Shown here: positions 33,933 to 51,646 of the stretch, in pieces | How positions within the stretch are numbered: the first letter of the stretch is position 1 | How the letters are laid out: each line of letters begins with the position of its first letter | Assembly: GCA_041192345.1 (NCBI GenBank) | Contig: JBEEND010000004.1 | Location: 1 to 61,549, forward strand | Direction: 5' to 3' | From: Actinomycetota bacterium | GTDB lineage: Bacteria; Actinomycetota; Actinomycetes; S36-B12; UBA5976 | Length of the DNA stretch: 61,549 bases | Notes under the pieces: generated by a model | Databases searched by the model: none | Told to the model about the DNA's origin: nothing | Seen by the model: the letters and a program-made list of their open reading frames with translations, nothing else | Made by a program: the position numbers and the translations under genes

Positions 33933-35138
33933 CTAAATACTAAGAAGCTGCTTGCGGTACTTCATAATTTCTGAAGTCATTCCAATACCCACAGCCCCGA
34001 TAAGAATATCATTTCGGAAGTAAGCCATAACAAGCTCATCAGTTAATTCCCCAGCAACTAAGTCATATCGATCAGCACTTCCAGGCATGCCAAAACCTTG
34101 AATCTTCATGTCATATTGATCTGACCAAAAAGTTGGTAGCGGCGTGAAAGGCTGCGCTGCTAGTTCAGCAAAGTTATCTGCCTGGGACAAGTAAGCACTC
34201 AACACCGCACCTACTCGCTTTCCAGTTTCTGTGGGGATATTCCAGTGCTCAATTCTTCTTGGCTCATCATCAAAAAGCGGATTGGCGAACCTAGCTAGGT
34301 CTCCAACTACATAAACTCCTTCGACGGGATTCCCATCAGTGGTAACTGCTCGAAGGGCTGAATCAGTGAGTACTCCGTTAGAGATATCAAGATTTGTATT
34401 TGCTAGCCATTCGACATTGCAATGTGAACTAATAGCTTCAACCAATACGGTAGCTTCCAATAATTCACCGTCATCTAAAATTACGCCAGTGAGGGAATCA
34501 GTTCCAGCTAAATCCGTTATGCCATGGCCCAACCGAAAATGTACGCCATGAGATTCGTGTCGACGCTGTAGTTCAGCAGCAAGCGTTTCTCCAAGCGGAC
34601 GGATCATCGGGAAACTATCGATCGCAACATTTGTAACTTCGCAACCTAATCCTCTTGCGGTAGCTGCAACCTCGCAGCCAATGAAACCAGCGCCAGCTAC
34701 AACAACTTTGGCGCCGGGCACTAATTCGGCGCGTAGTCCAATTGCATCATCTAGGGTGCGAACTGTATGACGACCAGATAATTTTCCATTTGGCAGGTCA
34801 AGCACCCGTGGTCGTAAGCCGGATGCAATAACTAGCCCGTCATATTTAAAGGTTTTGCCGGAATTTGTTTCTACGACCCGTGTTTCTAAATCAACGGAAG
34901 TTGCTGGATCACCCAAATGCCAAATGACATCTTCGACTTGGGTACGCAACTTAAAGGCAACAGCATCGTGAGTTACTTCTTTAGCCAGCACCTCTTTTGA
35001 AAGTGGTGGGCGGTTGTACGGAGCGTGAATCTCCGCACCGATCACCGTAATCTGACCTTCGAAACCGCTATTGCGCAAAGCTTCAGCTGCCCGCAGGCCG
35101 CCCATTGAGGCCCCAACAATAACGACTGACTTTGGCAT
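33933..35138 (-). CDS. FAD/NAD(P)H ferredoxin reductase (putidaredoxin-reductase-like)
   Basis: Two dinucleotide folds: VVIVGASMGGLRAAEAL and VVVAGAGFIGCEVAA. 401 aa. Confidence 0.88.
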   Translation of the reverse strand: MPKSVVIVGASMGGLRAAEALRNSGFEGQITVIGAEIHAPYNRPPLSKEVLAKEVTHDAVAFKLRTQVEDVIWHLGDPATSVDLETRVVETNSGKTFKYDGLVIASGLRPRVLDLPNGKLSGRHTVRTLDDAIGLRAELVPGAKVVVAGAGFIGCEVAATARGLGCEVTNVAIDSFPMIRPLGETLAAELQRRHESHGVHFRLGHGITDLAGTDSLTGVILDDGELLEATVLVEAISSHCNVEWLANTNLDISNGVLTDSALRAVTTDGNPVEGVYVVGDLARFANPLFDDEPRRIEHWNIPTETGKRVGAVLSAYLSQADNFAELAAQPFTPLPTFWSDQYDMKIQGFGMPGSADRYDLVAGELTDELVMAYFRNDILIGAVGIGMTSEIMKYRKQLLSI

Positions 35139-35152
35139 GTAGAACGCGTCAG

Positions 35153-35344
35153 TTATTCAACAATGGAGATTGCCTGCATTGGGCAAACATCCACAGCGCT
35201 TTCGACATCGCTTCGGCGACTGTCATCAGCGGTAGCAACAAATTCCAGCTTGTCATTGTCATTCAACGCAAAAATGTCTGGCGCCTCGAAGACGCACTGT
35301 CCATAATGTTGGCACTTATCCATGTCGACATCGATGGTTATCAT
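35153..35344 (-). CDS. small ferredoxin (3-Cys, 3Fe-4S type)
   Basis: CQHYGQC...CP pattern. 63 aa. ATGA overlap with the upstream gene. Confidence 0.85.
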   Translation of the reverse strand: MITIDVDMDKCQHYGQCVFEAPDIFALNDNDKLEFVATADDSRRSDVESAVDVCPMQAISIVE

Positions 35345-36219
35345 TTCTTCTCCTCAACAGTTGATGGATATAGATCTTTGGATGGCGTTCGAATTCCGCG
35401 GAACTCCCAGTCACCACCTAAAGCGGTGGAAATTACTTCTTCACTTTCTGTTGGCTGGGCGCCTACATCAGTACGGATTGCAGTTGGCCCCGTGACGATT
35501 GTGTTAGTAAGTTTGCCAAGCCCTTCAACTTCTACTTCAACCACGTCACCTGGTTCAACGGGACGTGAATTAGCTGGAGTTCCAGAGAACAAAATGTCAC
35601 CAGGAACTAACGTGATCGTTCGGGCAATGTCAGCAACCAAGTAATGCATATCCCATTCCATGTTGCTGGTGTTGTCATCTTGCTTCACAACGCCATTAAC
35701 TAAAGTTCGTATCTGCTTCCCCCGGAAGTCCCAATCCGTAATCAAGCCAGGACCAACAGGCGCCAATGTGTCGCTGCCCTTAACCCGAAGCATTGAACCA
35801 GCATCGGTATCGCGGAAGTCATGAAGACCGTAATCATTTCCGATGGTGTAGCCAGCTATGTAATCCCCAGCTTCAGCCGGGCTGATGTTACGGCAAGTCT
35901 TGCCAATCACGATTACGATTTCGCCTTCGTAGTTCAACCATTTACAACCCTGCGGGCGAACAATTGACCCTAAATGACTATTCAGTGCAGTAATCGGCTT
36001 GTGAAAGTAAGTTGGTGCCGCTGGAAGTTTGGTCATGAACTCCTGAGTACGACTGTCGTAATTCAAATGAACCGCAATGATTTTTGTTGGCTCAGTTGGT
36101 GGCAAGTGAATTGCATCAGCAATAGCTACTTCTCTGCCATCTGGAGCAACCAGAGTTTCGCCATGGCGAAGTGCTTGAACTGCAAACCCATCAAGCAAGA
36201 TACGACGATACTCAGCCAC
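35341..36219 (-). CDS. fumarylacetoacetate-hydrolase-family enzyme (HpaG/HpcE-like isomerase/decarboxylase)
   Basis: ORF 35341..36360. GTG 36219 overlaps the upstream stop by 8 nt (GTGGCTGA). FAH-fold C-terminal region PGDILFSGTPAN...PGDVVEVEVEGLG. Confidence 0.82.
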   Translation of the reverse strand: MAEYRRILLDGFAVQALRHGETLVAPDGREVAIADAIHLPPTEPTKIIAVHLNYDSRTQEFMTKLPAAPTYFHKPITALNSHLGSIVRPQGCKWLNYEGEIVIVIGKTCRNISPAEAGDYIAGYTIGNDYGLHDFRDTDAGSMLRVKGSDTLAPVGPGLITDWDFRGKQIRTLVNGVVKQDDNTSNMEWDMHYLVADIARTITLVPGDILFSGTPANSRPVEPGDVVEVEVEGLGKLTNTIVTGPTAIRTDVGAQPTESEEVISTALGGDWEFRGIRTPSKDLYPSTVEEKK

Positions 36220-37120
36220 GTGACACCACTGGGTGTTTAACTGACGGGAAACCTTCAGCTGGTTTATCGAACCAAATGTGGACCTGGCCGGTACCAATCG
36301 AGTTTTCGTATTCTCCGTATTGGCGACCAGGCGCAGTGCAATCCGTCTCACCGAGCGCACCGTGCATCATCATGCCGTGTCCGTACCGAGCTTCTGGCTT
36401 GTACTTATGGAACTCAGCCATGGTGTTGAGCACTTTGGCATGTTCGCCAGCAAGGTACCAATCGATACGTTTTTCGTCGGCCGCGCGAGCTTCGGGTGTA
36501 TAAATCGAATTCAAGTCTGCTGACTCATGCTTGCGTAGTTCGCGCAGTGGCCAAAACGTATGTGACAAAGCACCAGAGGCAATTAGCAAAACTTTACGAT
36601 CCGAATTTGCGATTGCTTCCCCAACCGCGCGGCCCAACCGTAAGTTATCTTCGTCATCACCGGTTTGGCACATGCCAATACTGATCCAGTTTTTATCCAA
36701 GCCTTTTCCGAGATACATCCAGAGATTTAAAGTTGCGTAGAAAGTTGGCAGGTGAGCGTTGTCGATCGGGGTGATCCAAGTCCCATGCTTTTCACCAAGT
36801 GATGAAATTTCCTTAGCTAGCGCGGGGTCACCTTTCCAGTCATAAGGTACTGATGACATTCCTCGAGGCAGTTCTTCGCTGGTATAAAACCCCTCGCGCC
36901 GATCATGTGAGGTGACTACGAACTCAACTGTGGTTGCCCAATGCGAGTCAAAGACAATTACTGTGTCGTAATCGACTTTTTCAAATACGTCTTTACGCAG
37001 TTGTTCTAATCCTGCTACCAGTGTGAAGTCTTCACCGTTGTTGAGTTCTTTACGAATCTCAAGTGGCAAGACAATGGTAGGCACATGTGCCAATAGGCCA
37101 GCTCCAACAATTTCACCCAT
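36212..37120 (-). CDS. hpaD: LigB-superfamily extradiol dioxygenase, homoprotocatechuate 2,3-dioxygenase-like
   Basis: IVFDSHW, YTSEELP, SGALSH and GTGQV blocks are collinear with E. coli HpcB/HpaD as recalled. Confidence 0.8.
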   Translation of the reverse strand: MGEIVGAGLLAHVPTIVLPLEIRKELNNGEDFTLVAGLEQLRKDVFEKVDYDTVIVFDSHWATTVEFVVTSHDRREGFYTSEELPRGMSSVPYDWKGDPALAKEISSLGEKHGTWITPIDNAHLPTFYATLNLWMYLGKGLDKNWISIGMCQTGDDEDNLRLGRAVGEAIANSDRKVLLIASGALSHTFWPLRELRKHESADLNSIYTPEARAADEKRIDWYLAGEHAKVLNTMAEFHKYKPEARYGHGMMMHGALGETDCTAPGRQYGEYENSIGTGQVHIWFDKPAEGFPSVKHPVVSRG

Positions 37121-37123
37121 GAT

Positions 37124-38587
37124 TTATTCCTTCCAACCGTTAGGCGCAAAGACCGTGTTCTTTACGTCTGCATAAAAATCAAATGACCAGATTCCACCTT
37201 CGCGGCCGATACCTGATTTTTTAGATCCACCAAAAGGTGCACCAAGATCTCGTACGAAGAAACAGTTAACCCAAATCGTTCCAGCAACGAGCCGATTAGT
37301 GATTGCTTCAGCTCGCTTCTTGTTTCCACAAACGACCACTGCGGCTAACCCGAACTCAGTTCCGTTAGCCATATCAATTGCTTCTTCATCGGTGTCGAAT
37401 TGCTGCATACTGAGCACTGGTCCAAACACTTCTTGAGTTACGATTTCGCTGCCGACCATTGGATTATCAATCAAAGTCGGCATAAAGAAGTTGCCGCCCA
37501 ATTCTGCATTAGGGCCACCACCCATAACTATCGTTTGTCCTTCGGCTACTGCGCGGTCGACGAATCCCTTAACACGTGCAAAATGTTCTGGATGAATTTG
37601 CGGACCAATGTCAGTAGCTTCATCGCGCGGGTCACCCTGCTTGATTTGCTTGGCTCGTTCGATAAATGCGGCTTTGAACTTGTCCGCAATTCCACTTTGC
37701 ACCAAGAATCTAGTTCCAGATAAACAAACCTGACCGGCATTGTCATACTGTTCCACGGCAACCGTAACTGCGATATCCAAATCAGCATCGTCAGTGATGA
37801 TAAGCGGACTCTTGCCACCAAGCTCAAATGAACATGGCACTAGATTTTCTGCGGCAGCTTTAGCGACAAGTTTGGCGGTAGGTACTGAACCGGTAAATGA
37901 AATTCGGGACAAATCTGGATGCGTAGTTAGCGCCGCTCCAGCTTCTTCACCAAAACCTTGCACAACATTGAAAACTCCCGGTGGCATTCCTGCCTCCGCA
38001 GCTATGTCTGCAAGTAGCGAAGCAGTCAGAGGTGCCCACTCAGGTGGTTTTGCGACGACAGTGTCGCCAGCTGCAAGCGCCGGACCAATCCGCCAAGTTG
38101 CGAGCATAAGCGGGGCATTCCAGGGTGTGATGATTGCGGTAACACCGGCTGGGTCCCAAGTTACGTGATTGGTATGACCACGAGTTTCAAAATCAGGGTA
38201 ACTCAATTGATTCATCGCGTAGTCAGCAAAAAATCTAAAGTTCATGGCAACGCGAGGCATGACACCACGACGGTGCGAGCGAAGTAGCGAACCGTTGTCC
38301 GTGGTCTCAACGATTGCTAAGTCTTCAATTCTGGATTCGATAATGTCAGCAACCCGATTCAAAATTACGCCACGTTCAGTCGGAGACATTTGAGACCAAA
38401 TTGGAAAGGCAGCTTTTGCTGCAGCAACAGCTAAATCAACTTCCCGTTTGCCACCGCGGGAAATGTCTGCCAGAAAAGTGCCATCTATTGGTGAATAATC
38501 AGTGAATGTTGAATCAGAGGCAATCCGCTTGCCGCCGATGAAATGCCGAGTATCAACTTCAACCCCAGCAACTGTTGCCATTGTCAT
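37124..38587 (-). CDS. hpaE: aldehyde dehydrogenase, 5-carboxymethyl-2-hydroxymuconate-semialdehyde dehydrogenase-like
   Basis: 487 aa with FELGGKSP and GQVCLSG. First gene of the ALDH-dioxygenase-FAH-Fdx-FdR operon. Confidence 0.8.
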   Translation of the reverse strand: MTMATVAGVEVDTRHFIGGKRIASDSTFTDYSPIDGTFLADISRGGKREVDLAVAAAKAAFPIWSQMSPTERGVILNRVADIIESRIEDLAIVETTDNGSLLRSHRRGVMPRVAMNFRFFADYAMNQLSYPDFETRGHTNHVTWDPAGVTAIITPWNAPLMLATWRIGPALAAGDTVVAKPPEWAPLTASLLADIAAEAGMPPGVFNVVQGFGEEAGAALTTHPDLSRISFTGSVPTAKLVAKAAAENLVPCSFELGGKSPLIITDDADLDIAVTVAVEQYDNAGQVCLSGTRFLVQSGIADKFKAAFIERAKQIKQGDPRDEATDIGPQIHPEHFARVKGFVDRAVAEGQTIVMGGGPNAELGGNFFMPTLIDNPMVGSEIVTQEVFGPVLSMQQFDTDEEAIDMANGTEFGLAAVVVCGNKKRAEAITNRLVAGTIWVNCFFVRDLGAPFGGSKKSGIGREGGIWSFDFYADVKNTVFAPNGWKE

Positions 38588-38603
38588 GCCATCCCCTGAA
38601 AAG

Positions 38604-38621
38604 TCGTTCGGGTACTAACGA
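38604..38621 (+). promoter_or_regulatory. operator-like motif, copy 1 (TCGTTCGGGTACTAACGA)
   Basis: TCGTT-N8-AACGA inverted repeat in the hpaE / puuD-like divergent region. Confidence 0.5.
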
Positions 38622-38688
38622 ATTACGATACGTTAAATTTAGTGATTTGGGAACCAAATTAAAGTAATTCTTTCATTAGGCTGGTGGC

Positions 38689-39369
38689 ATGTCGTTACGT
38701 CCAAAAATCGCACTAATAGGGCGGTTTACAAACTCTGCTTCTGCGCTTCGGTATGCCGGAGTCGTTAGTTCACGAACACTCCTGGAATCACTCTGGGATG
38801 CAGGCGCTGAACCGGTAACCCTGCTAGCAGCACCGGAAAGTGATTGGGAGCAAAGACTTCGAGGATATCAAGGCGTTTTACTTGCAGGTGGCGGTGATAT
38901 CAATCCCGCCAGATACGGTCGAGCACCGGATGTGAGCGTCTATGACGTGGATGATTTGCAAGATGAGACAGATTTTGGAATGACTGAGTATGTTCTGCAG
39001 CAGGGTATTCCAACTTTGGCAGTATGTCGAGGCTTGCACGTGGTAAATGTTGTTCGCGGCGGAACCCTGATCCAAGATATGCCAGTAAATCATCGACATG
39101 TTGTGCAGGAAGTAAAAGTTAGTGACTACGAATCATTTGGATTCACCACCGAGCTGGTAAAAACTTCTTGTTACCACCATCAGGCAATTGATAAAATTGG
39201 CACGGGATTAGAAGTGCTCGGACGCGGTCCAGATGGAACCATAGAAGCCGTTGGAATTGAATCAACTGGTTGGGCTCGCGGTGTGCAGTGGCACCCTGAA
39301 GATTCGGCGAAATCTGATCCAAACCAACACGGTTTATTTACCCGGTTAGTTAAAGAGGCAAGTGCTTAG
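38689..39369 (+). CDS. gamma-glutamyl-amide hydrolase (peptidase C26, PuuD-like class-I amidotransferase)
   Basis: Nucleophile LAVCRGLH and GVQWHPE. 226 aa. Confidence 0.82.
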   Translation: MSLRPKIALIGRFTNSASALRYAGVVSSRTLLESLWDAGAEPVTLLAAPESDWEQRLRGYQGVLLAGGGDINPARYGRAPDVSVYDVDDLQDETDFGMTEYVLQQGIPTLAVCRGLHVVNVVRGGTLIQDMPVNHRHVVQEVKVSDYESFGFTTELVKTSCYHHQAIDKIGTGLEVLGRGPDGTIEAVGIESTGWARGVQWHPEDSAKSDPNQHGLFTRLVKEASA

Positions 39370-39872
39370 AAAGTTTTTTGGGAATCTGCAGTAAGAGTGA
39401 CCGCTCTAAGCAGATCAGCAAATGAACCCAAATCAGATCGCTTTAAGTCAGCTACAGCTAGTTGCTCACCCTTATTAAATTCTGGAAATAGTTGCTTCAT
39501 CATTTTGCGACCTTTGGCAGTTAGCTTCACTAAAACTAAACGACCATCTTTTCTGCTGCGAGTTCGCGTTATGAGGCCGCGTCCTTCTAGGGTTTGCATC
39601 ACGCCTGTCAAAGTAGCCTTAGAAAACCCACCCTCTTCTGCAATGACTCGGGACTCAACTGGTTCCCAAATCCACACCACCCAAAGAACCACAAATGCAG
39701 TCCAAGATAAATCATGCTCCGCAAGTACCGTGCGCTCCAAGTAATTGCGGACTGAGTTTGCTGCTCGGAAAAGGTTAGAGGTAACTGCCATAGCCTCGAA
39801 ATCGATTTTCAGATCGCCGAGTCGCGCCTGAACTTGGCGTTCAGTTTCATCTAAAGTGTGCTGACCGGCCAT
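39366..39872 (-). CDS. MarR-family transcriptional regulator
   Basis: 168 aa with a winged-HTH core (ATLTGVMQTLEGRGLITRTRSRKDGR). GAGG RBS. Confidence 0.88.
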   Translation of the reverse strand: MAGQHTLDETERQVQARLGDLKIDFEAMAVTSNLFRAANSVRNYLERTVLAEHDLSWTAFVVLWVVWIWEPVESRVIAEEGGFSKATLTGVMQTLEGRGLITRTRSRKDGRLVLVKLTAKGRKMMKQLFPEFNKGEQLAVADLKRSDLGSFADLLRAVTLTADSQKTF

Positions 39873-39959
39873 GGAACCTCAATTTACTAGAACCTAGGCC
39901 AACGTTATCGGCTTTCTTGAAAATGATCGCAGTATGGGTCAGAATCAGGTATCTTAAAA

Positions 39960-39977
39960 CTGTTCGTACCCGAACGA
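39960..39977 (-). promoter_or_regulatory. operator-like motif, copy 2 (reverse complement TCGTTCGGGTACGAACAG)
   Basis: Lies between marR and the P450 gene. 15/18 identical to copy 1. Confidence 0.5.
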
Positions 39978-40005
39978 TTATTTCAACTTGGGGTGAGGTG
40001 AGTTA

Positions 40006-41256
40006 GTGTCAGCAACTACAGATGTCAGCTTGGCAAATCTAGATCTTTTCGAAGCACAAATTCCATGGCAAACTTTTGACGAGTTGCGTGCCAATAGTCC
40101 GGTGCACTGGAGCGACGAACCTGCTCCAAACTCGGGATTCTGGTCGCTTACTCGCTATCACGATATTGTTCGCGTGTTACGCGACACCGAAACTTATTCA
40201 AGCGAAAAAGGCACCGTAAATCTTGAGGAACTCGACGACGAGCAAATGGAAGCTCGTAAATCAATGATCGAGACAGATGGTATTCGTCATCGCGCGCTGC
40301 GTAAGTTGATGCAAGATTCATTCACACCCAAGGCAGTGGCGGGATATGAAACCTTTCTTCGGGGATTAACTGCCAGCACCCTTGATGATGCTTTTGCAAA
40401 GGGATCTTTTGACTTCGTTAAAGAAGTTGCCGCAGATTTCCCAATTCGGGTTTTGGCTCGACTTATGGATGTTCCCGACACGGACATTGACAAGTTGATC
40501 GCTTGGGGAAACCGAATGGTTGGAAACACCGACCCAGAACATGCTGATGTTTTGCTGGATTCACCAGAATCAGAAAAATACCGAATGTTGCCATTTCGTT
40601 CCCCTGCGGCCCTGGAAGTTTGGGCATATGGCGATGACTTAGCAAAGCAAAGACTGGGTGGCAAAGGTGTGGACATTGTTTCCACACTTATCAATCAAAC
40701 ACCAATTGATGGACTACCACTTTCCACTAGAGATTTTCATGCCTACTTCTTGCTGCTAATTGTTGCTGGAAACGAAACCACACGACACACAATTAGTCAC
40801 AGCATGAACTACTTGATTGATAACCCAGATCAATTGGCATTGATGCAGGAACGCCCAGAGTTAATTGAATGGGGTGTAGAAGAAATGCTTCGCATGGCCA
40901 GCCCGGTTTATCATTTCCGTCGTACTGCTGCGAAGGACGCTGAAATCAATGGTCAAGCAATCAAGGAAGGCGACAAAGTTGTCACTTGGTTTGCTGCTGG
41001 GAATCGTGATCCAGAAGTATTCAAAGATCCATACCGTATGGACGTGACGAGAAATCCAAACGAACATATGACATTTGGTCGAGGTGGGCCACATATGTGC
41101 TTAGGTAACTCGCTAGCCCGACTTGAAATAAAGATCATGTTCGAAGAATTGTTGCCAAGAATTTCTAACATCAAGCGAGTTGGCGAAGTAGAGCGGTTGC
41201 GTAGTAATTTCGTTAATGGCATAAAGCGTTTCCCGGTTGAGGTAACGCTTAAGTAG
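40006..41256 (+). CDS. cytochrome P450
   Basis: Heme loop FGRGGPHMCLGNSLAR and EXXR EEMLR. GTG start after GAGGTGAG. Confidence 0.92.
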   Translation: MSATTDVSLANLDLFEAQIPWQTFDELRANSPVHWSDEPAPNSGFWSLTRYHDIVRVLRDTETYSSEKGTVNLEELDDEQMEARKSMIETDGIRHRALRKLMQDSFTPKAVAGYETFLRGLTASTLDDAFAKGSFDFVKEVAADFPIRVLARLMDVPDTDIDKLIAWGNRMVGNTDPEHADVLLDSPESEKYRMLPFRSPAALEVWAYGDDLAKQRLGGKGVDIVSTLINQTPIDGLPLSTRDFHAYFLLLIVAGNETTRHTISHSMNYLIDNPDQLALMQERPELIEWGVEEMLRMASPVYHFRRTAAKDAEINGQAIKEGDKVVTWFAAGNRDPEVFKDPYRMDVTRNPNEHMTFGRGGPHMCLGNSLARLEIKIMFEELLPRISNIKRVGEVERLRSNFVNGIKRFPVEVTLK

Positions 41257-44245: not shown

Positions 44246-44263
44246 TCGTTAGGGCACAAAAGA
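44246..44263 (+). promoter_or_regulatory. operator-like motif, degenerate copy 4 (TCGTTAGGGCACAAAAGA)
   Basis: 15/18 match to the consensus. Lies between ferredoxin 2 and the ADC-family gene. Confidence 0.35.
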
Positions 44264-44267
44264 TTAA

Positions 44268-44459: not shown

Positions 44460-44547
44460 GAAAGCCTCTCTCATTACAAAATTGTAATCTGATGCCTGCA
44501 ATATGGGTCATCCCACACAGTGCTTTAAATGATGATACAAATAGTGA

Positions 44548-45702
44548 ATGGATTTGAAGACAAGTGTGGGTCACGAAGATTTACGTTCTGCTATTGCAGC
44601 ATTGTGTGCAGATTTTCCAGGGGAGTACTGGCGCTCGTTAGAGCCAGATAAGTATCCAGACGCTTTTGTTGAAACGCTTACTAAGAATGGCTGGCTTTCC
44701 GTTTTGATTCCCGAAGAATATGGCGGCGGCGGCGCCTCGCTTACTGAGGCTTCGATAATTTTGGAAGAGATTTCCGTGTCAGGTGGAAACCCAAGTGCTT
44801 GCCATGCCCAGATGTACGTCATGGGAACTTTGTTGCGTCATGGTAGCGAAGCTCAAAAGCAGCAATATCTGCCGAAGATTGCGGCTGGCGAATTACGACT
44901 CCAAGCTTTTGGCGTAACTGAGCCAAGTGCCGGATCTGAAACAACCAAGATTCGCACTAAGGCAGAGCGCGTCGAAGGTGGTTGGAAAATCAATGGTCAA
45001 AAAATCTGGACCTCCAGGGCCCTGCAATCCGATTTAATGTTGCTATTGGCGCGTACCTCACCGTTTGATGAATCTGGAAAACCTTCTGCTGGTATGTCTG
45101 TGTTCATTTTTGATATGAGAAATCTTGAAGGATTAACTATTCGCCCTATCAAAACCATGATGAATCACAACACCACTGAAGTTTTTTTTGACAATGTAAT
45201 TATTCCTGAAGATTCACTAATTGGCGAAGAGGGACGAGGATTCAAATACATTTTGGACGGCATGAATGCCGAACGAATTTTGATCGCGGCTGAGTGCATT
45301 GGTGATGGTCGATTCTTTCTTGAACGCGCTGTGGCGTATGCCAATAGCCGAGAAATTTTCGGTGGCCCAATCGGCAAGAATCAAGGCGTGCAATTTCCGT
45401 TAGCTCGTTCCTACATGCAACTTCGAGCTGCCGATTTAGTTAGGTTTGACGCCGCCGCTCGCTTTGACGCTGGCGAAGATTGTGGCGCACAAGCAAACAC
45501 TGCGAAGTTCTTAGCAGCTGAAGCATCCTGGGCTGCTGGAAATGCTGCGATCGATACTCATGGCGGAATGGGATTCGCGGAAGAGTACGACATTGAGCGC
45601 AAGTTCCGTGAAACTAGGCTTTACCAAGTTGCCCCAATTAATAACAACTTGATTATGGCCTACATCGGACAGCACGTTCTGGGCATGCCAAAGTCTTATT
45701 AA
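44548..45702 (+). CDS. acyl-CoA dehydrogenase family protein
   Basis: 384 aa with ACAD three-domain layout. Contains GVTEPSAGSE and GGMGFAEEYDIERKFRE. Confidence 0.88.
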   Translation: MDLKTSVGHEDLRSAIAALCADFPGEYWRSLEPDKYPDAFVETLTKNGWLSVLIPEEYGGGGASLTEASIILEEISVSGGNPSACHAQMYVMGTLLRHGSEAQKQQYLPKIAAGELRLQAFGVTEPSAGSETTKIRTKAERVEGGWKINGQKIWTSRALQSDLMLLLARTSPFDESGKPSAGMSVFIFDMRNLEGLTIRPIKTMMNHNTTEVFFDNVIIPEDSLIGEEGRGFKYILDGMNAERILIAAECIGDGRFFLERAVAYANSREIFGGPIGKNQGVQFPLARSYMQLRAADLVRFDAAARFDAGEDCGAQANTAKFLAAEASWAAGNAAIDTHGGMGFAEEYDIERKFRETRLYQVAPINNNLIMAYIGQHVLGMPKSY

Positions 45703-46397
45703 TACCTTTTGGCGGTTACATATTCTGAAATAAACCAGTCGACCAAGACTTCACAGTTTTGTGCAGTCTCATCAGAAATTGCGTTTAACTCAGACATCAA
45801 TATCTCAGTGGTCATCCCTGTTGGTAAATAGTTAGCTCCACCGATGTCTAACCAGGCTTGAACTAAGTCAGTCGTAGCTTCAGGATGAAACTGGAGACCG
45901 ACTGCAGTTTTGTGCCGGAAGGCTTGCACAGCCGATGGTGTCTCGGCCATAACTTCGATGTGTTCGGGCAGGATCATCCGATCACTGTGCCAAGAAAACC
46001 AAGGACCTTCCGGAAACGGTAAACCGAGTGAGGTTTCCTTTATGTGCAGTTCACCAAGTTCAAGTTCATCAGATTTTTCAACATGGCCACCCACTGCTTT
46101 CGCCAACACTTGGCCACCGAAGCAAACACCAAGAAATGGAATTTCCTGATCAAAAGTGAGATTTATCAATGCTTCTTCAGCATCTACCCAAGTGGCGACC
46201 TCGGGATCATATGCACTGTAGAAAGAACCAAATGAAATTATGAAATCAAATTCAGATGGATCAGGAAAATTCAAGTTCAGTTCGCCATCTTCGCCAAGGA
46301 TTACATGACGTTGCGTTTCGATACCGCGTGACTTGAGAATGTCACCAATTACACCTGGCCGGCCCGCTTCTTCATGACTAATTAACAAAGTACGCAT
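45699..46397 (-). CDS. class-I glutamine amidotransferase-like protein
   Basis: Nucleophile GVCFGGQVLA and QFHPE. Lies immediately downstream of a GS-like gene. Confidence 0.82.
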   Translation of the reverse strand: MRTLLISHEEAGRPGVIGDILKSRGIETQRHVILGEDGELNLNFPDPSEFDFIISFGSFYSAYDPEVATWVDAEEALINLTFDQEIPFLGVCFGGQVLAKAVGGHVEKSDELELGELHIKETSLGLPFPEGPWFSWHSDRMILPEHIEVMAETPSAVQAFRHKTAVGLQFHPEATTDLVQAWLDIGGANYLPTGMTTEILMSELNAISDETAQNCEVLVDWFISEYVTAKRY

Positions 46398-46400
46398 GAT

Positions 46401-47723
46401 CTAAATTATCTCCCGATAACGCGCTAGTTCCCAGTCTGTAACTTGCGACGCAAACGTTGCTAATTCGACACGCTGGACGGCAGCCCACATATCTACAAAC
46501 GCATCACTAAATGCACGTCGAGCAAATGCACTCGTCTCCCAGTTGTCGATCGCTTCAGCTGGATGATTTGGAAGCCGATCCCATTTATCTTCAGGGTGTG
46601 GGTCTCCGGTTACCATTTGTGGCAGTGGCAAGTCGTTCGTAAGTCCTTCATAGCCTGCAGCTAGCGCGCCGTTTAGAACTAAGTAAGGATGTGCATCCGC
46701 AGCAGCCCAACGCCATTCAATGCGATTTGAACTCTTTGCGCCATTAATGCAACGAACTCCAACTAAGCGATTATCCAGCCCCCAAGTAACTTGCGTTGGT
46801 GAGAAACTGTAATCCACTAATCGCTTGTAGCCATTAATGGTTGGAGTGTTAACTACCTGTAAATCTTTAGTGTAGGCCATCAATCCAGTAAGGTACTTTT
46901 CCATCAATGCGGAATCAAGTACACCTTTTCCGTCAGTTGCATCAAAAGCATTCTTGCCATCTTTTGTAACCAAACTTTGATGCACGTGCATACCGCAACC
47001 GGACTCACCCAGAATTGGTTTGGCCATGAAGCTCGCAACTAAACCATGTTTTTGGGCAACCAAACGAACGATGTATTTGTACAGGACGGTGTCATCAGCC
47101 ATTTTCATGGCCTCGCTGTAACGCAAGTTGATTTCGATTTGCGATGGACCGTATTCAACATTGCTGGCCTCAACCAACATGCCAGTCTTTCTCAAGGCTT
47201 CACGAATTTCAAGAATTATTGGTTCTAGCTCGGCGCCTTTATTGATTCCGTAACACTGTAGTGAAGTGAACAACGGTGTGCCGTCTGGATTGAAAAGATA
47301 AAACTCAAGCTCAGTTGCGGCATTCACTGAGTAACCCAAATCAGCAAACTTCTTTAAAGTTGTTTTCAGCATCTGCCTTGGGTCAATATCTACCGGTTGA
47401 TGAGTATCGGCTGTGTAGGTATCGCATATCACAACACCGATACCTTCAGCCCAACCAGCGACTCGGAACGAACTCAAGTCTGGTTGCACGTGAATGTCTT
47501 TCACTTCTTGAACAGGGGTTACTTCAATTTCACAACGTGGTTGCCAAGTGTGCACAACATTTGCGATTCCATATCCTTCATTGCGCAAGAACTGCTCAGT
47601 GGGTAGTCGCTTGCCACGCGGGACACCCCAGTTGTCGACAATTATGCATTCGACGGTGTGAATGTTGTGTTTTTCGCATAAGTCTGCGACGCGCTTTAGA
47701 TCTGCGGATTGAGTTTGCGACAC
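46401..47723 (-). CDS. glutamine-synthetase-family ligase (gamma-glutamyl-amine synthetase-like), second copy
   Basis: ORF to 47735 (TTG). GTG 47723 lies 5 nt after GGGGGA. Contains ATELEFYLF, GPSQIEINLRY and GCGMHVHQS. Confidence 0.85.
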   Translation of the reverse strand: MSQTQSADLKRVADLCEKHNIHTVECIIVDNWGVPRGKRLPTEQFLRNEGYGIANVVHTWQPRCEIEVTPVQEVKDIHVQPDLSSFRVAGWAEGIGVVICDTYTADTHQPVDIDPRQMLKTTLKKFADLGYSVNAATELEFYLFNPDGTPLFTSLQCYGINKGAELEPIILEIREALRKTGMLVEASNVEYGPSQIEINLRYSEAMKMADDTVLYKYIVRLVAQKHGLVASFMAKPILGESGCGMHVHQSLVTKDGKNAFDATDGKGVLDSALMEKYLTGLMAYTKDLQVVNTPTINGYKRLVDYSFSPTQVTWGLDNRLVGVRCINGAKSSNRIEWRWAAADAHPYLVLNGALAAGYEGLTNDLPLPQMVTGDPHPEDKWDRLPNHPAEAIDNWETSAFARRAFSDAFVDMWAAVQRVELATFASQVTDWELARYREII

Positions 47724-47843
47724 GAATTCCCCCAAAGTCAGGTTTTAGATATTTCTTAAGGGTAATGTGCCTTGAAACTGAATGTACGTGATTTCGCTTC
47801 GAAATAGATTTGATTCGGAAGCAAACGAAAGGTAGGCCTGCCA

Positions 47844-48800
47844 GTGAAAGCCGTAGTTTTGAGTGGTGTGGGAGCAACGCTTGAGTATTTGGACTACCCA
47901 GACCCGAATCCAAGTGGATCCGAAACCGTGATTGATGTGACGGCATGTGGCGTCTGCCATTCAGATTTACACGTGGTTGAAGGTATTTACCCAAGCCCGC
48001 TGCCAATGGTCATGGGACATGAGGTGGTCGGGGTTCATGTCGAACTAGGTCCGGTAATGGTTTACCCATGCTGGGGATGCCTGAAGGCTGATTGCTGGGC
48101 CTGCTCAAGTGGGCAGGAAATGATTTGCCCAAACGCGACCGAAGCGGGCCTTTTTCGCAACGGCGGCTATGCCGAGAAAATGCTAATCAAAAACAAGTCG
48201 TACCTAGTTCCACTTGGCGACTTGGATCCTCTATCTGCTGCACCACTAGCCTGCGGGGGGCTTACTGCTTATCGCGCAGTCAGTCATGTCTTGCCAAACT
48301 TAACTGAGAAAAGCCGCGTACTAGTTATTGGTGCTGGTGGACTTGGACAGTTTGGAATTCAATTCTTAAAAATTCAATCAGATGCCAAAGTGATTGCAGC
48401 TGATTTGTCGAGTGACAAACTTGAGCGCGCACTGGCTGTTGGCGCAGATGAAGTTGCCAGCCCGACAGAGCTAGATGGAACTTTTGATGCGATTATTGAC
48501 TTCGTTGGCGCCCAGAACACACTTGAATTAGCGGCCAAGCAAATTGCACGTCAAGGCACAGCTGTTTTAGTTGGAATTTTTGGTGGCAAGATCCCATTTG
48601 GCTTTGGTGCCGTGCCGCATGAAGCACGTTTCATGACAAGCATTTGGGGAACGCAAGGACAACTAGGTGAGTTATTGGCTCTAGCGAACAAATATGAATT
48701 GAAACATTCCGTTGAAGCAATACCCCTAGCTCGCGCTCAAGAAGCACACGAAAGACTTATTGCCGGCACAGTCGCTGGTCGGATTGCTTTAGTTCCTTAA
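47844..48800 (+). CDS. zinc-dependent alcohol dehydrogenase
   Basis: GVCHSDLH and GAGGLGQFG motifs. GTG start. Confidence 0.88.
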   Translation: MKAVVLSGVGATLEYLDYPDPNPSGSETVIDVTACGVCHSDLHVVEGIYPSPLPMVMGHEVVGVHVELGPVMVYPCWGCLKADCWACSSGQEMICPNATEAGLFRNGGYAEKMLIKNKSYLVPLGDLDPLSAAPLACGGLTAYRAVSHVLPNLTEKSRVLVIGAGGLGQFGIQFLKIQSDAKVIAADLSSDKLERALAVGADEVASPTELDGTFDAIIDFVGAQNTLELAAKQIARQGTAVLVGIFGGKIPFGFGAVPHEARFMTSIWGTQGQLGELLALANKYELKHSVEAIPLARAQEAHERLIAGTVAGRIALVP

Positions 48801-48820
48801 AGAAAATTTTGGAGATTCAA

Positions 48821-50065
48821 ATGACCATCACTGAAGCTATCAACATCGTTGATCCCGCAATTTACGAACAAGGGATTCCACATGAAACATTTAGTTGGAT
48901 GCGACACAATGCTCCCGTTTATCGGCACGAATATGCAGATGGCGATTTTTGGGCGGTAACTAGGTACAACGACATAATCCAAGTAACCAGGGACTGGGAA
49001 ACTTTTTCATCTGCAAAGAAAATGGTAAATCTTTGGGATCTGTCAGACGAAGCAATGCAGGCTAGACGTTCAATTATTGAAAGTGATCCACCTATCCATG
49101 CCCGATTGCGCAAACTTGCAATGCCACCATTCACTTTGCGCAAAGTAGCTGATTATGAGGCAGCAACTCGTAAGATTGCATCGACACTTCTGGATGCTGC
49201 GCTTGAAAACTCAAACGTAGATCTTGTTACTGCGATTTCATCTCCGCTGCCAATTCAAGTAATCGTAAACATTCTTGGCGTACCGAGTGAAGACACTGAC
49301 TACATGGTTGAGCTCAGTGATCACTTAGTTGAGGGAACAACAGGTGAGCCGCTGGTACCGGATGCTTATGGAAATAAAACTCCACTCGAACTTTTGCCAT
49401 TCAATAGCCCGGCAGCATTCGCACTCTTTGAATACGGACGCAAACTAGGCGATGAAAGACGAGCTAATCCGCATGAAGATGTCGTCAGTACTTTGGTGCA
49501 CTCACAAGTTGATGGTGAACATTTATCCGAAACGGAGTTCGCAAATTTTTTCCAAGTACTTGTTTTTGCTGGGAATGAAACTACGCGCACCGCGATTTCA
49601 AATGGTCTGCATGCATTTATGGATAATCCAGATCAGCTAGAAAAGTTTTACGACAACCCAGATTTACTTGAAAACGCAGTCGAAGAAATCATCCGGTATG
49701 CCACCCCAGTTCTACATTTTCGCCGCACGGCCACTAAGGACACCGAGATAGATGGCCACCCAATTGCGGCCGGGGACAAGGTTGTGATGTGGTACGCCTC
49801 ATCGAACTTTGATGAAGAATTTTTTGAAAACCCCTTAAAATTCGATGTTTCACGTCCGACACGCCCAAAACACTTGGCTTTTGGTGCCCAGGGCCCCCAT
49901 CACTGCATTGGAGCCTCATTAGCACGCCTGGAAATAAAGATTTTGTTGGAAGAAATGCGAAAAAGACGGATTTTTTTGGAAAGAACTGGAAATATCGTTA
50001 GGACCCGTTCGAATTTCGTGAATGGGGTGTTAAGTCTTCCAGCCCGCGTTAAGCAGGGTGGATAA
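48821..50065 (+). CDS. cytochrome P450
   Basis: ORF from 48809. GGAG lies 6 nt before ATG 48821. Heme loop FGAQGPHHCIGASLAR. Paralogous to the P450 at 40006. Confidence 0.92.
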   Translation: MTITEAINIVDPAIYEQGIPHETFSWMRHNAPVYRHEYADGDFWAVTRYNDIIQVTRDWETFSSAKKMVNLWDLSDEAMQARRSIIESDPPIHARLRKLAMPPFTLRKVADYEAATRKIASTLLDAALENSNVDLVTAISSPLPIQVIVNILGVPSEDTDYMVELSDHLVEGTTGEPLVPDAYGNKTPLELLPFNSPAAFALFEYGRKLGDERRANPHEDVVSTLVHSQVDGEHLSETEFANFFQVLVFAGNETTRTAISNGLHAFMDNPDQLEKFYDNPDLLENAVEEIIRYATPVLHFRRTATKDTEIDGHPIAAGDKVVMWYASSNFDEEFFENPLKFDVSRPTRPKHLAFGAQGPHHCIGASLARLEIKILLEEMRKRRIFLERTGNIVRTRSNFVNGVLSLPARVKQGG

Positions 50066-50131
50066 GCAAGACAAGTTGTTGGCATCGCGCAAACAATGCA
50101 AGACGCAATTGAAGGACTCTAGGAGGAGCTC

Positions 50132-51646
50132 ATGGCAACACATGATTCAGGTCATGTTTCAGAAAAGGAAGGTTTGCGTAAAGGCACCATCGGTGTTCTT
50201 GGCATTGTCTTCTTCGTTGTAGCTGCCGCTGCACCACTTGCCGGTATGACCGGCGCGGCACCAGTTGCAATTGTTCTCGGAAGTGGATCAGGAACCCCAG
50301 GTGCATATCTTCTGGTTGGTCTTGTCCTTCTACTGTTCAGTGTTGGCTATGCGGCAATGACACATCGCGTAACTAACGCTGGCGCATTCTTTGCCTACGT
50401 TGGTCGTGGCTTGGGAACTAATGCAGGCGTCGGTTCTGCCTTGGTTTCAATGGTTGCTTACCTAACCGTGCAATGGGCTATCTATGGCTTCTTCGGCGCA
50501 GTTATGGCTGGACAAATGTCTGCCCAATTCGGAATTGATTTAGCTTGGTACTCGTGGGCATTAATCGCTCTTGTAATTGCGACAGTGCTTTCACTACTTA
50601 GTGTTGACGTTGGCGCGAAGGTACTTGGCGTACTAATGATCGCTGAAATGGCTTCGTTAGTTATCACCTCACTTGCCGTTCTTGTTGATGGTGGCCCAGA
50701 AGGCTGGAACTTAGCTGCCTCATTCTCACCAGGCAATATTTTCGCAGGTGGTTTGGTAGGTACTGCTGGTATCGCATTCGCATTCGCATTCGCATCCTTC
50801 ATCGGCTTCGAAGCAACTGCAATTTATGGTGAAGAATCAAAAGATCCAAAGCGAACTGTCCCTCGGGCAACTTACCTCGCAGTAGGACTCATTACTGCGG
50901 TATTTGTGTTGGTGACCTTTGCAATGATTACCGCCATGGGTGCATCAGAAGCAGTTAACAAGACAGTTGAATGGTCATCCGTTGATGGTGTGCCATTGGC
51001 AAACCCAGCAAACGTCTTGATCACAGTTGCTAACACTTATGTTGGTTCTTGGCTAGGAACTCTAATGGGATGGTTAATTCTTTCCAGTCTGTTTGCAGCC
51101 ACTGTGGCATTCCAGAACTCAGCAAGTCGTTACCTCTATGCGATGGGTCGCGGCGGAGTTCTACCTAAGTCAATGGCAAAAGTTAATGGTCGCGGCGCTC
51201 CACAGAATGCAGCGATTGTGACTTCTGTATTGGCAGTGCTTGTAATCCTTTACTTCCAAATCAATGCTCTTGATCCAATCTTGAATTTGTTCTATTGGAT
51301 GAGCGCAACATCGGTCATTGCCATTGTGTTGGTGGAAATCCTGGTCAGCATTGCAGTCATCGTGTTCTTTGCTAAGAACAAGCTTGACGAAGGCGTGTTC
51401 ACCCGAGTTATTGCACCAGTACTTGCAGCGCTAGGTTTGGCATTCGGTGAATACTTGCTGATGTCACGCTTTGCATTGCTTGCTGGCACTACGGCGCCAG
51501 ATGTTGACCCAACGGTTACCGCCTGGGCACAAAGCATGACGGGAACTGTGTTAATGGCAATCCCATTCATTGCCCTTGTTATTGGATACTTAATTGGTGT
51601 CGCACGCAAGGAAAATGAATCGGCCATTAAAGATCTCGTTAGTTAG
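50132..51646 (+). CDS. APC-superfamily amino-acid/amine permease
   Basis: 504 aa with about 12 TM segments. AGGAGG RBS. Confidence 0.85.
   Translation: MATHDSGHVSEKEGLRKGTIGVLGIVFFVVAAAAPLAGMTGAAPVAIVLGSGSGTPGAYLLVGLVLLLFSVGYAAMTHRVTNAGAFFAYVGRGLGTNAGVGSALVSMVAYLTVQWAIYGFFGAVMAGQMSAQFGIDLAWYSWALIALVIATVLSLLSVDVGAKVLGVLMIAEMASLVITSLAVLVDGGPEGWNLAASFSPGNIFAGGLVGTAGIAFAFAFASFIGFEATAIYGEESKDPKRTVPRATYLAVGLITAVFVLVTFAMITAMGASEAVNKTVEWSSVDGVPLANPANVLITVANTYVGSWLGTLMGWLILSSLFAATVAFQNSASRYLYAMGRGGVLPKSMAKVNGRGAPQNAAIVTSVLAVLVILYFQINALDPILNLFYWMSATSVIAIVLVEILVSIAVIVFFAKNKLDEGVFTRVIAPVLAALGLAFGEYLLMSRFALLAGTTAPDVDPTVTAWAQSMTGTVLMAIPFIALVIGYLIGVARKENESAIKDLVS

Follow-up and report, generated by a model that had tools for sequence, protein, structure and literature searches.

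A candidate MarR-controlled gene cluster of freshwater Actinomycetota linking amine γ-glutamylation to aromatic meta-cleavage

Gene content, conservation and shared operator of the core cluster

The window analyzed here is a 61,549-nucleotide stretch of an Actinomycetota bacterium (contig JBEEND010000004.1), and its positions 33933-51646 carry a contiguous cluster in which glutamine synthetase (GS)-like ligases and class-I glutamine amidotransferase (GATase)-type hydrolases stand beside cytochrome P450s, ferredoxins and an aromatic ring-cleavage set. Families were assigned by Pfam, and likeness to named enzymes was judged by NCBIfam models against their curated equivalog cut-offs. The first-pass annotation of this DNA had listed 17 genes; each Pfam family and gene place agreed with that list, whereas the number of genes is 18. 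The core unit consists of 33933-44263 together with the permease gene at 50132-51646:

33933-35138, minus strand: FdR, ferredoxin-NAD(P)+ reductase (Pfam Pyr_redox_2, Reductase_C), last gene of the ALDH-LigB-FAH-Fdx-FdR operon
35153-35344, minus strand: Fdx1, small single-cluster ferredoxin (Pfam Fer4_15, Fer4_13), overlapping the FAH stop by 4 nt
35341-36219, minus strand: single-domain FAH-family protein of 292 aa, HpcE/HpaG-like, with a GTG start at 36219
36212-37120, minus strand: LigB-type (class III) extradiol dioxygenase (Pfam LigB)
37124-38587, minus strand: ALDH, NAD(P)-dependent aldehyde dehydrogenase, HpaE-like (Pfam Aldedh, 500 bits), first gene of the operon
38689-39369, plus strand: C26, PuuD-like peptidase C26 protein (Pfam Peptidase_C26, 129 bits; motifs AVCRG and QWHPE), convergent with the MarR gene
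39366-39872, minus strand: MarR-family regulator (Pfam MarR; best NCBIfam match HpaR, 54 bits, cut-off 121)
40006-41256, plus strand: P450-1 (Pfam p450; haem-Cys motif FGRGGPHMCLG, I-helix AGNETT), convergent with GAT1
41257-41997, minus strand: GAT1, stand-alone class-I GATase (Pfam GATase; motifs GICFGGQ and QFHPE)
42070-43416, plus strand: GS-like-1 (Pfam Gln-synt_C), divergent from GAT1 and convergent with the ADC gene
43413-44222, minus strand: ADC, acetoacetate decarboxylase-superfamily protein of the MppR/Sbi00515 type (PDB 4jm3, E 2e-45; 4zbo/6eej, E ~5e-43)
50132-51646, plus strand: APC permease (Pfam AA_permease), 66 nt downstream of P450-2

The FdR, Fdx1, FAH, LigB and ALDH genes all lie on the minus strand with gaps of 3-14 nt or overlaps of 4-8 nt, and this tight spacing therefore indicates one operon. 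The FAH open reading frame (ORF) extends to 36360; the 292-aa start, which overlaps LigB by 8 nt, was chosen by homology with L001 (L-numbers denote the loci of relatives compared with the window). FdR is probably the redox partner of the P450(s). The catalytic motifs were intact: the haem-Cys loop and the I-helix sequence AGNETT are present in both P450s of the cluster, and all three hydrolases (C26, GAT1, and GAT2 of the inserted segment described below) keep their Cys and His-Pro-Glu motifs.

A one-genome-per-species scan found 372 genomes with a GS-like-1 relative, and the best 80 (62-96% identical) were tabulated by tblastn. Counts over 40 loci refer to those with at least 9 kb upstream of the GS-like-1 orthologue; totals of 41, 45 and 61 refer to other adequately flanked sets. 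The FAH, LigB, ALDH, MarR, P450-1 and GAT1 genes were each present in 40/40 loci and FdR and Fdx in 39/40, while the ADC gene was present in 60/61, the APC permease in 55/61 and C26 in 25/40. The FAH protein is 80-88% identical across lineages. The conserved core comprises FdR, Fdx, FAH, LigB, ALDH, PuuD-like hydrolase, MarR, P450, GATase, GS-like ligase, ADC and APC permease; its gene order is constant, recurs across 80 species-level genomes and is far from chance. The earlier expectation that the genes would be co-conserved in relatives was borne out for the core, both in these counts and in the operator that its promoters share.

This operator-like element is an 18-bp palindrome with the consensus TCGTTnnTACCCnAACGA and the ideal form TCGTTCGGnnCCGAACGA, and it lies 15-29 nt before four core transcription units:

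38604-38621, minus strand: O1, TCGTTAGTACCCGAACGA, 17 nt upstream of the ALDH start, in the ALDH/C26 divergent spacer
39960-39977: O2, CTGTTCGTACCCGAACGA, 29 nt upstream of the P450-1 start, in the MarR/P450 spacer
42038-42055: O3, TCGTTCATACCCTAACGA, 15 nt upstream of the GS-like-1 start, in the GAT1/GS1 spacer
44246-44263, minus strand: O4, TCTTTTGTGCCCTAACGA, 24 nt upstream of the ADC start

When up to 3 mismatches were allowed, 5 matches were found in the window against 0.98 expected, and 0/100 shuffles reached 5. The fifth match (49995-50012, 3 mismatches) was rejected as an operator, as it falls within codons for a conserved C-terminal part of P450-2 (IVRTRSNF). Relatives with as little as 62-67% identity in GS-like-1 also carry the palindrome, in the same spacers. 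A related palindrome, TCGTTTG-N4-CAAACGA, occurs in the ALDH/PuuC-like-ALDH, ADC/MarR and MarR/GS spacers of pSLUN1 (Streptomyces lunaelactis) and in the ALDH/PuuC-like-ALDH and ADC/GS spacers of Embleya. The MarR protein is probably a repressor that binds this palindrome. Taken together, we consider it likely that the core forms one MarR-controlled regulon coupling amine γ-glutamylation to aromatic meta-cleavage.

The closest relatives of the window are freshwater Actinomycetota metagenome-assembled genomes (MAGs) labelled Nanopelagicales or plain Actinomycetota. The carriers include Nanopelagicales, Rhodoluna and cultured Microbacteriaceae (Frigoribacterium, Lacisediminihabitans, Glaciihabitans, Marisediminicola and Salinibacterium), and one carrier sits on a 1.3-Mb contig, taken as most of a streamlined genome. 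Several carrier MAGs (L008, L076, L028, L063, L026, L037 and L044) bear the implausible names Bifidobacterium breve, Bifidobacteriaceae, Auritidibacter, Rubricoccaceae and Rubrivirga; their genes share 63-97% identity with those of freshwater actinobacteria, and the names probably reflect mislabelling or mis-binning rather than a real host range.

Additional genes were observed close to some cores. A third P450 of the window (31234-32439, plus strand; Pfam p450) lies just upstream of the cluster, after a GcvT/YgfZ-like gene (30111-31190). Its orthologues (60-61%) are located inside the core between ALDH and MarR in L006, L022 and L044, and just outside the FdR end in L063, and no operator copy was found near it in the window. 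This protein may be an accessory hydroxylase that widens the substrate range, for example by a second ring hydroxylation. In L006, positions 11344-16914 beside the core encode a luciferase-like monooxygenase, a TetR regulator, a second GS-like protein (33% identical), a NicX-like dioxygenase and an α/β-hydrolase, which may form another GS-like-linked ring-cleavage unit.

Module B, an insertion between the ADC gene and the permease

The remaining six genes of the cluster lie in the segment 44264-50111, here called module B:

44268-44501, minus strand: Fdx2, ferredoxin (Pfam Fer4_15), 44% identical to Fdx1
44548-45702, plus strand: ACAD, acyl-CoA dehydrogenase family (Pfam Acyl-CoA_dh_N, _M, _1)
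45699-46397, minus strand: GAT2, class-I GATase (Pfam GATase), 37% identical to the Arthrobacter-module GATase
46401-47735, minus strand: GS-like-2 (Pfam Gln-synt_C), in an operon with GAT2
47844-48800, plus strand: Zn-ADH, zinc-type alcohol dehydrogenase (Pfam ADH_N, ADH_zinc_N), 55% identical to the Arthrobacter-module ADH
48809-50065, plus strand: P450-2 (Pfam p450; motif FGAQGPHHCIG)

The true Fdx2 start is probably the ATG at 44459, which would give a 63-aa protein like that of L001. The window aligns with L008 up to 44263, O4 being the last shared bases, and with L019 again from 50112. Module B was found in 7/41 loci, namely six loci among the nearest relatives of the window and L083, where it is rearranged and lies beside the core. 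L008 and L019 lack it despite 90-96% identity in GS-like-1, and L001 lacks it in part (GS-like-1 identity over the three loci, 77-96%); in L001, the ACAD/Fdx2 pair occurs without the GS-like-2 module. No operator copy was found in the promoters of the inserted module. A stand-alone counterpart is present in Arthrobacter sp. PAMC25564 and consists of permease, ADH, GS, GATase, C26, P450, ALDH and a GntR regulator, with identities to module B of 51% (GS), 55% (ADH) and 42% (P450). Because the boundaries are sharp, close relatives lack the segment, its promoters carry no operator and a counterpart exists in Arthrobacter, we conclude that 44264-50111 is a separately regulated insertion into the former ADC/permease spacer.

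Ancestrally, the APC permease gene adjoined the ADC gene. The two are transcribed divergently in L008 and L019, where the permease has a separate operator, TCGTTCGTATCCGTTCGA; the stretches corresponding to the insertion are L008 12154-12365 and L019 12154-12363, and no counterpart of this operator was found in the window. This permease-proximal operator was replaced by the insertion, and the permease of the window is therefore probably co-transcribed with ADH-P450-2.

Among described systems, the closest kind for module B is the Ipu system of Pseudomonas sp. KIE171 and of the Paenarthrobacter aurescens TC1 plasmids (PMC1713258), which comprises a GS-like ligase, GATase, P450, ferredoxin, ferredoxin reductase and dehydrogenases. 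Module B likewise contains GS-like-2, GAT2, P450-2, Fdx2 and Zn-ADH; unlike Ipu, it has no FdR or ALDH of its own and carries an ACAD gene. The annotated IpuC of pTC1 is 37% identical to GS-like-2 and 32% to GS-like-1, and the pTC1 P450 is ~30% identical to both P450s. Judged by these identities, the closest counterpart of module B is the uncharacterised Arthrobacter module, and module B is not an Ipu orthologue. It is an Ipu/GlnA4-like module of a known kind, predicted to serve a small alkylamine or alkanolamine, and it would borrow the FdR of the core.

Predicted functions, substrate and competing explanations

Among solved structures, the LigB protein matched only DHPAO 8iq8 (homoprotocatechuate dioxygenase, E 4e-19) and two aminophenol dioxygenases; its His12, His60 and Glu243 (metal ligands) and His187 (catalytic) align with the residues of these relatives. 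It scored 130 bits against the HpaD_Fe model (cut-off 316) and is 27-30% identical to annotated hpaD genes. The best model of ALDH was HpaE (517 bits, cut-off 638). The FAH protein matched only residues 205-428 of HpcE (PDB 1gtt, C-terminal domain, 200 bits) and scored 190 bits against the HpaG C-terminal model (cut-off 276). All NCBIfam best matches of the cluster (HpaD, HpaE, HpaG, PuuD, HpaR, MppR and γ-glutamylputrescine synthetase) stayed below the curated cut-offs, and the Hpa and Puu names therefore denote likeness, not assignment. Neither hpaF, hpaH, hpaI nor hpaBC was found by Pfam among the scanned window ORFs of at least 150 aa, and no HpaBC, HpaF, HpaH or HpaI was seen in the compact cores of relatives, the evidence being Pfam labels for L001-L006 and gene spacing for the others.

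The two GS-like proteins were aligned with E. coli GlnA, E. coli PuuA and the annotated IpuC. With residues numbered as in E. coli, Met included, the metal, ATP and glutamate sites E130, E132, E213, E221, H270, H272, R322, R340, R345, E358 and R360 were invariant in GS-like-1, GS-like-2, PuuA and IpuC. The ammonium-site residue Asp50' (FDGSS motif) falls in a gap in both GS-like proteins, and the flap residue Glu327 is replaced by Leu in GS-like-1, Phe in GS-like-2, Tyr in PuuA and Trp in IpuC. Against the GlnA equivalog TIGR00653 (cut-off 429 bits), GS-like-1 and GS-like-2 scored 263 and 232 bits, respectively. As the catalytic Glu, His and Arg residues are kept while Asp50' and Glu327 are lost, as in PuuA and IpuC, this residue pattern marks both proteins as probable amine ligases, not glutamine synthetases, in agreement with the first-pass annotation, which had set them apart from ordinary ammonium-assimilating GS. 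The two are only 26.5% identical to each other.

The same annotation had placed a class-I amidotransferase-type hydrolase next to each GS-like gene, and this arrangement was found for both: GAT1 and GS-like-1 are divergently oriented neighbours, and GAT2 shares an operon with GS-like-2. Among solved structures, GAT1 is closest to a stand-alone GATase/glutaminase of Mycobacterium smegmatis (PDB 7d54, 190 bits), which was crystallised with glutamine; GAT1 is proposed to be a γ-glutamyl-amide hydrolase. C26 scored 55 bits against the PuuD model (cut-off 266) and is predicted to be a γ-glutamyl-amide hydrolase accessory to the core.

MppR and Sbi00515, the closest relatives of the ADC-family protein, are aldolase-dehydratases that reversibly join pyruvate to aldehydes, and MppR acts in enduracididine biosynthesis. 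No member of the MppR/Sbi00515 type is known to us to have catabolic hydratase-aldolase activity. The Lys126 of the ADC-family protein aligns with the Schiff-base Lys156 of MppR (PKK motif). The protein scored 29 bits against the acetoacetate decarboxylase model (cut-off 150) and 179.5 bits against the MppR model TIGR04460 (cut-off 380), which marks it as a relative of MppR and not MppR itself. In Streptomyces canus, the ADC gene is within a single operon with ALDH-LigB-FAH, and in the plasmid collection LigB and ADC orthologues, each at 50% identity or more, fell on the same 5 replicons and on no others. A query with the ADC protein retrieved no orthologue below 74% identity and so gave no distant contexts, which the plasmid collection supplied instead. 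In Saccharolobus solfataricus, the MppR-like Sso1221/Sso1222 are phenol-induced, adjoin catechol 2,3-dioxygenase and have been proposed as meta-pathway aldolase (PMC7820114). On the basis of the closest relatives, the conserved Schiff-base Lys, the S. canus operon, the LigB/ADC co-occurrence and the Saccharolobus precedent, we propose an aldolase role, and the ADC-family protein run in reverse would cover the steps of both HpaH and HpaI. The first-pass annotation had described hpaH and hpaI as missing: neither is among the scanned window ORFs, whereas the hpaH/hpaI step is probably not missing, given an aldolase-dehydratase homologue in nearly every locus.

More distant variants of the cluster bear on the substrate. 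Those of Streptomyces, Embleya and Novosphingobium keep the GS-like, LigB, ALDH, FAH and ADC genes, and MarR is also kept, except within reach of the S. canus core. On pSLUN1, FAH (77%), LigB (67%), ALDH (65%), ADC (58%) and GS-like (42%) orthologues are accompanied by MarR, a decarboxylase and a permease, and tblastn found no P450, Fdx, FdR, GAT1 or other deaminating enzyme within 25 kb. Plasmid pABRDHK22 of Novosphingobium sp. EMRT-2 (L097, 201530-211992) encodes FAH (72%), ADC (53%), LigB (52%), ALDH (51%), P450 (41%) and GS (34%) relatives in the shuffled order 2Fe-2S ferredoxin, ALDH, FAH, ADC, ALDH, GS-like, P450, LigB, MarR. Its LigB gene is annotated as "catechol 1,2-dioxygenase", which is the wrong enzyme class.

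In pSLUN1, Embleya and S. canus, one operon holds both a PuuC-like ALDH and a PuuD-family hydrolase; these relatives' proteins scored 554 bits (ALDH, cut-off 850) and 92 bits (hydrolase, cut-off 266). Operator copies lie at the promoter region of this pair in pSLUN1 and Embleya, and no operator match was found beside the S. canus pair. The core is also flanked by a PuuC-like ALDH gene in L003, L049, L070 and L081, and these proteins share 45-47% identity with E. coli PuuC.

Two non-orthologous pyridoxal phosphate (PLP)-dependent decarboxylases have been recruited at different positions of the cluster. In Microbacteriaceae, a type-1 decarboxylase gene stands after P450-1; among solved structures, its product is most similar to tryptophan decarboxylase 4obu, then to 5o5c (DesA, the desferrioxamine-pathway decarboxylase) and then to 3,4-dihydroxyphenylalanine (DOPA) decarboxylases. 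The type-2 decarboxylase stands at the end of the FAH/FdR operon in L006, L028, L073 and pSLUN1, and the pSLUN1 protein matches tyrosine decarboxylases best (TIGR03811; PDB 5hsi, 7cwx). This recruitment of two aromatic/tyrosine-type decarboxylases points to a tyrosine- or DOPA-derived amine as substrate, and an aromatic biogenic amine of the tyramine/dopamine type, as suggested at first pass, fits best. Beside the cluster on the S. canus plasmid NZ_CP107732.1 (L095, 6487-9347), an aminomethyltransferase-family (GcvT-like) gene, purU and folD were observed; they resemble a tetrahydrofolate-dependent demethylation set and hint at O- or N-methylated aromatic amines as extra substrates.

From these observations, we infer a substrate and a series of chemical steps. 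The APC permease, of putative specificity, would import the amine, and in many relatives a PLP decarboxylase would make it from the amino acid. GS-like-1, as a γ-glutamyl-arylethylamine synthetase, would use ATP and glutamate to form the γ-glutamyl-amide, and P450-1 with Fdx and FdR would hydroxylate the ring to a catechol (γ-glutamyl-dopamine). LigB would then open the ring with the nitrogen still glutamylated, which would block cyclisation of the amine onto the ring-fission aldehyde. The HpaE-like ALDH would oxidise the semialdehyde, the HpcE-like FAH enzyme would decarboxylate or isomerise the ring-fission acid, and the ADC-family enzyme would hydrate the 2-oxo-3-enoate and cleave it by retro-aldol reaction to pyruvate and γ-glutamyl-4-aminobutanal. 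An ALDH (PuuC-like in relatives) would convert this aldehyde to γ-glutamyl-γ-aminobutyric acid (γ-glutamyl-GABA), from which GAT1 and/or the PuuD-like C26 hydrolase would release GABA and glutamate. The single HpaE-like ALDH of the window could serve twice and oxidise the terminal aldehyde as well, a double role that one characterised HpaE-type dehydrogenase has in its own pathway (PMC12718150).

Several considerations favor retention of the glutamyl group, among them the pairing of a PuuC-like ALDH with a PuuD-family hydrolase described above. Once its ring is opened, DOPA with a free amine spontaneously forms betalamic acid or muscaflavin by cyclisation (PMC11926856), and a glutamyl cap would prevent such ring closure. 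When the carbon scheme of the homoprotocatechuate pathway (PMC12718150) is followed with an aminoethyl in place of the carboxymethyl group, it leads to pyruvate and γ-glutamyl-4-aminobutanal, a PuuC substrate, whose product is a PuuD substrate. In addition, pSLUN1 has the ligase and hydrolase without a nitrogen-removing enzyme, which argues that the nitrogen stays glutamylated through ring cleavage. We assign a probability of roughly 0.45 to the reading that the core breaks down a tyrosine-derived arylethylamine (tyramine or dopamine) in this glutamyl-retained manner. More tentatively still, glutamate may act as a traceless N-protecting group through ring fission in freshwater Actinomycetota, Streptomycetaceae and a Novosphingobium. 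Prior conversion of the amine to 4-hydroxyphenylacetate would not be required; the evidence favors ring cleavage of the glutamylated amine itself.

Several observations weigh against the glutamyl-retained route. The nearest solved structures of P450-1 are CYP125/124-type aliphatic terminal hydroxylases, and ring hydroxylation by P450-1 is therefore an assumption. P450-1 is 42% identical to P450-2 and 45% to the P450 of the Arthrobacter alkylamine module; a reading of its regiochemistry from this 42-45% identity to alkylamine-module P450s was dropped as weak, since the CYP125 group scores similarly. The best named matches of LigB, ALDH and FAH act on the carboxymethyl (homoprotocatechuate) series and not on N-acyl-aminoethyl compounds, and an HpaF-like tautomerase was not found among the scanned window ORFs. 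C26 and the type-1 decarboxylase tend to alternate, with C26 only in 27 loci, the decarboxylase only in 11, both in 1 and neither in 6. A PLP decarboxylase and a PuuC-like ALDH are both missing from the cluster of the window, and the P450-less variant is a single replicon (pSLUN1). The Novosphingobium variant has no recognisable γ-glutamyl hydrolase. Finally, no GABA aminotransferase (GabT/PuuE) or PuuB-like oxidase was found adjoining any core locus, and tblastn with E. coli PuuB and PuuE met only unrelated genes in the window, at 2211-3272 and 10742-11746.

An alternative that we consider unlikely keeps the same regulon and substrate class and has the P450 hydroxylate the carbon next to the amide nitrogen, so that N-dealkylation would yield glutamine and an arylacetaldehyde. 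An ALDH would convert the latter to (3,)4-(di)hydroxyphenylacetate; LigB, ALDH, FAH and ADC would run a homoprotocatechuate meta-pathway to pyruvate and succinic semialdehyde; and GAT1 would be a glutaminase or a proof-reading hydrolase, as in the aniline clusters. The best named matches of LigB, ALDH, FAH and MarR (HpaD, HpaE, HpcE and HpaR) fit this route, but all of the Hpa matches are below their equivalog cut-offs and LigB is only ~30% identical to HpaD. The glutaminase-type mycobacterial GATase with glutamine that is nearest to GAT1 also fits. The PuuC-like ALDHs of relatives score nearly as high against phenylacetaldehyde dehydrogenase models, although there would be no reason for their pairing with a PuuD-family hydrolase unless a γ-glutamyl aldehyde arose. 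With dopamine as substrate, each core gene would be used once, whereas tyramine would require a second hydroxylase, and most cores have none. Against this route, pSLUN1 lacks P450, Fdx and FdR and would have no route to remove the nitrogen, yet keeps GS, hydrolase, LigB, ALDH, FAH and ADC.

It is likewise doubtful that the core serves a different aromatic nitrogen compound, such as γ-glutamylated tyrosine or DOPA, phenylethylamine, octopamine, or methoxylated or N-methylated amines, or that it builds a small metabolite rather than breaking one down. The substrate is not readable from the sequences, 33/45 loci have a core without any decarboxylase, some cores contain a second P450, and the GcvT-like, PurU and FolD proteins of S. 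canus suggest demethylation; if an α-carboxylate were kept, the end product would be γ-glutamyl-glutamate semialdehyde. On the other hand, the recurrent aromatic/tyrosine-type decarboxylases point to decarboxylated amines, and the characterised GS-like ligases that we know of act on amines and not on α-amino acids. The regulator, the permease and the 1.3-Mb carrier contig, taken as a streamlined genome, favor catabolism over biosynthesis. Far less probable is the initial view that the two GS-like/GATase modules are one system, in which all 18 genes, both modules and both P450s act on one substrate. The 18 genes are contiguous, a single FdR is available to both P450/Fdx pairs, ADH-P450-2 is immediately followed by the permease, and module B stands beside the core in another arrangement in L083. 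Nevertheless, only the first module belongs to the conserved regulon: module B is missing from L008 and L019 and from 34/41 loci, its boundaries are sharp and its promoters lack the operator, it stands alone in Arthrobacter sp. PAMC25564, and its ligase is only 26.5% identical to GS-like-1.

Comparison with known systems and neighbouring genes

The glutamyl-retained route shares features with the Puu pathway of E. coli, in which a GS-like ligase without ammonium-site residues is likewise adjoined by a class-I amidotransferase/C26 hydrolase. Puu also has, like relatives of the core, a PuuC-type ALDH linked to a PuuD-family hydrolase, and γ-glutamyl-GABA is both a Puu intermediate and the proposed end product of the core. 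In contrast to Puu, the core has no PuuB oxidase and a MarR-type regulator instead of PuuR, and its γ-glutamyl aldehyde would arise from ring fission rather than from amine oxidation. Against the γ-glutamylputrescine synthetase model, GS-like-1 scored 250 bits (cut-off 650). In the aniline Tdn/Atd clusters, the GS-like TdnQ/AtdA1 and the GATase-like TdnT/AtdA2 provide γ-glutamylation before oxygenation, as proposed for the core. There, a Rieske dioxygenase removes the nitrogen to give catechol, whereas the core uses a P450 and the nitrogen is probably kept; no Rieske domain turned up in the scanned window ORFs (Pfam).

Ipu provides a precedent for a P450 acting on a γ-glutamyl-amide, but it has no ring-cleavage, FAH or ADC genes, which the core has. 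The Hpa/Hpc pathways of E. coli and Acinetobacter baumannii (PMC12718150) share with the core a LigB dioxygenase, a semialdehyde dehydrogenase, an FAH decarboxylase/isomerase and cleavage to pyruvate and a C4 aldehyde. The core differs in having no HpaBC, HpaF, HpaH or HpaI, a single-domain FAH protein and an ADC-family protein in the place of hydratase and aldolase; it is also tied to a GS-like ligase and a P450, and its proposed side chain is N-γ-glutamyl-aminoethyl instead of carboxymethyl. The Streptomyces GlnA4 ethanolamine pathway (PMC6529630) and mycobacterial GlnA-like/GATase pairs resemble the core in combining a γ-glutamyl-amine synthetase, a hydrolase and dehydrogenases, but GlnA4-type pathways are without ring cleavage, P450 and ADC-family enzyme. 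Judged by gene content, the core is a fusion-like combination of Puu/Ipu γ-glutamylation, Hpa meta-cleavage and an ADC-superfamily aldolase, and it belongs to none of these systems. In open-access full text and bioRxiv, we found no GS-like/P450/LigB/ADC cluster and no bacterial catabolic γ-glutamyl-tyramine or -dopamine route, although subscription journals may hold one; the only mentions of γ-glutamyltyramine were as a precursor of methanofuran and as a feature in metabolomics. The suggestion that the combination is without published description agrees with this search.

The enzyme families are all known; their combination, and the proposed glutamyl cap, paid for with ATP, against cyclisation during ring opening, were not found in the full text searched. 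If the glutamyl-retained route is true, very abundant freshwater bacteria would have a new turnover route for the carbon and nitrogen of tyrosine, tyramine and dopamine, and it would be the first meta-cleavage pathway running on an N-acylated amine. It would also give acetoacetate-decarboxylase-like aldolase-dehydratases a physiological catabolic role and explain the absence of hpaH and hpaI. The resolution of an 18-gene "island" into a conserved regulon and a later insertion changes the annotation of such clusters, and the regulator-operator pair and several cultured carriers are ready for study.

The cluster is embedded in housekeeping genes (pur genes, pst, ppk, mshC, glnR and dtd; disA, radA and proC). 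The G+C content of the window is ~47%, and that of the cluster (0.46-0.49) does not differ from its flanks; a recent transfer of the whole cluster was considered and found no compositional sign. Rfam and ARAGORN detected a tRNA-Val at 7217-7291 and nothing else in the window, and an exact-sequence look-up of GS-like-1 gave no match. A GlnR-type response regulator, of the family of the actinobacterial global nitrogen regulator, is encoded ~8 kb upstream of the cluster (25472-26179, minus strand). Directly after the permease, an ORF of 226 aa (51759-52439, plus strand) has an N-terminal hydrophobic segment and no Pfam family; it was rejected as a cluster member, as it is kept in close relatives only (65-93%), and was regarded as a flank gene. 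A separate small unit at 7507-11848 consists of a thiamine pyrophosphate-dependent enzyme (minus strand), an ALDH (9128-10669) and a DAO-type FAD oxidoreductase (10682-11848). The latter is 24% identical to E. coli PuuB, and an aminotransferase class III gene lies nearby (2109-3476); this unit is possibly another amine or amino-acid oxidation unit.

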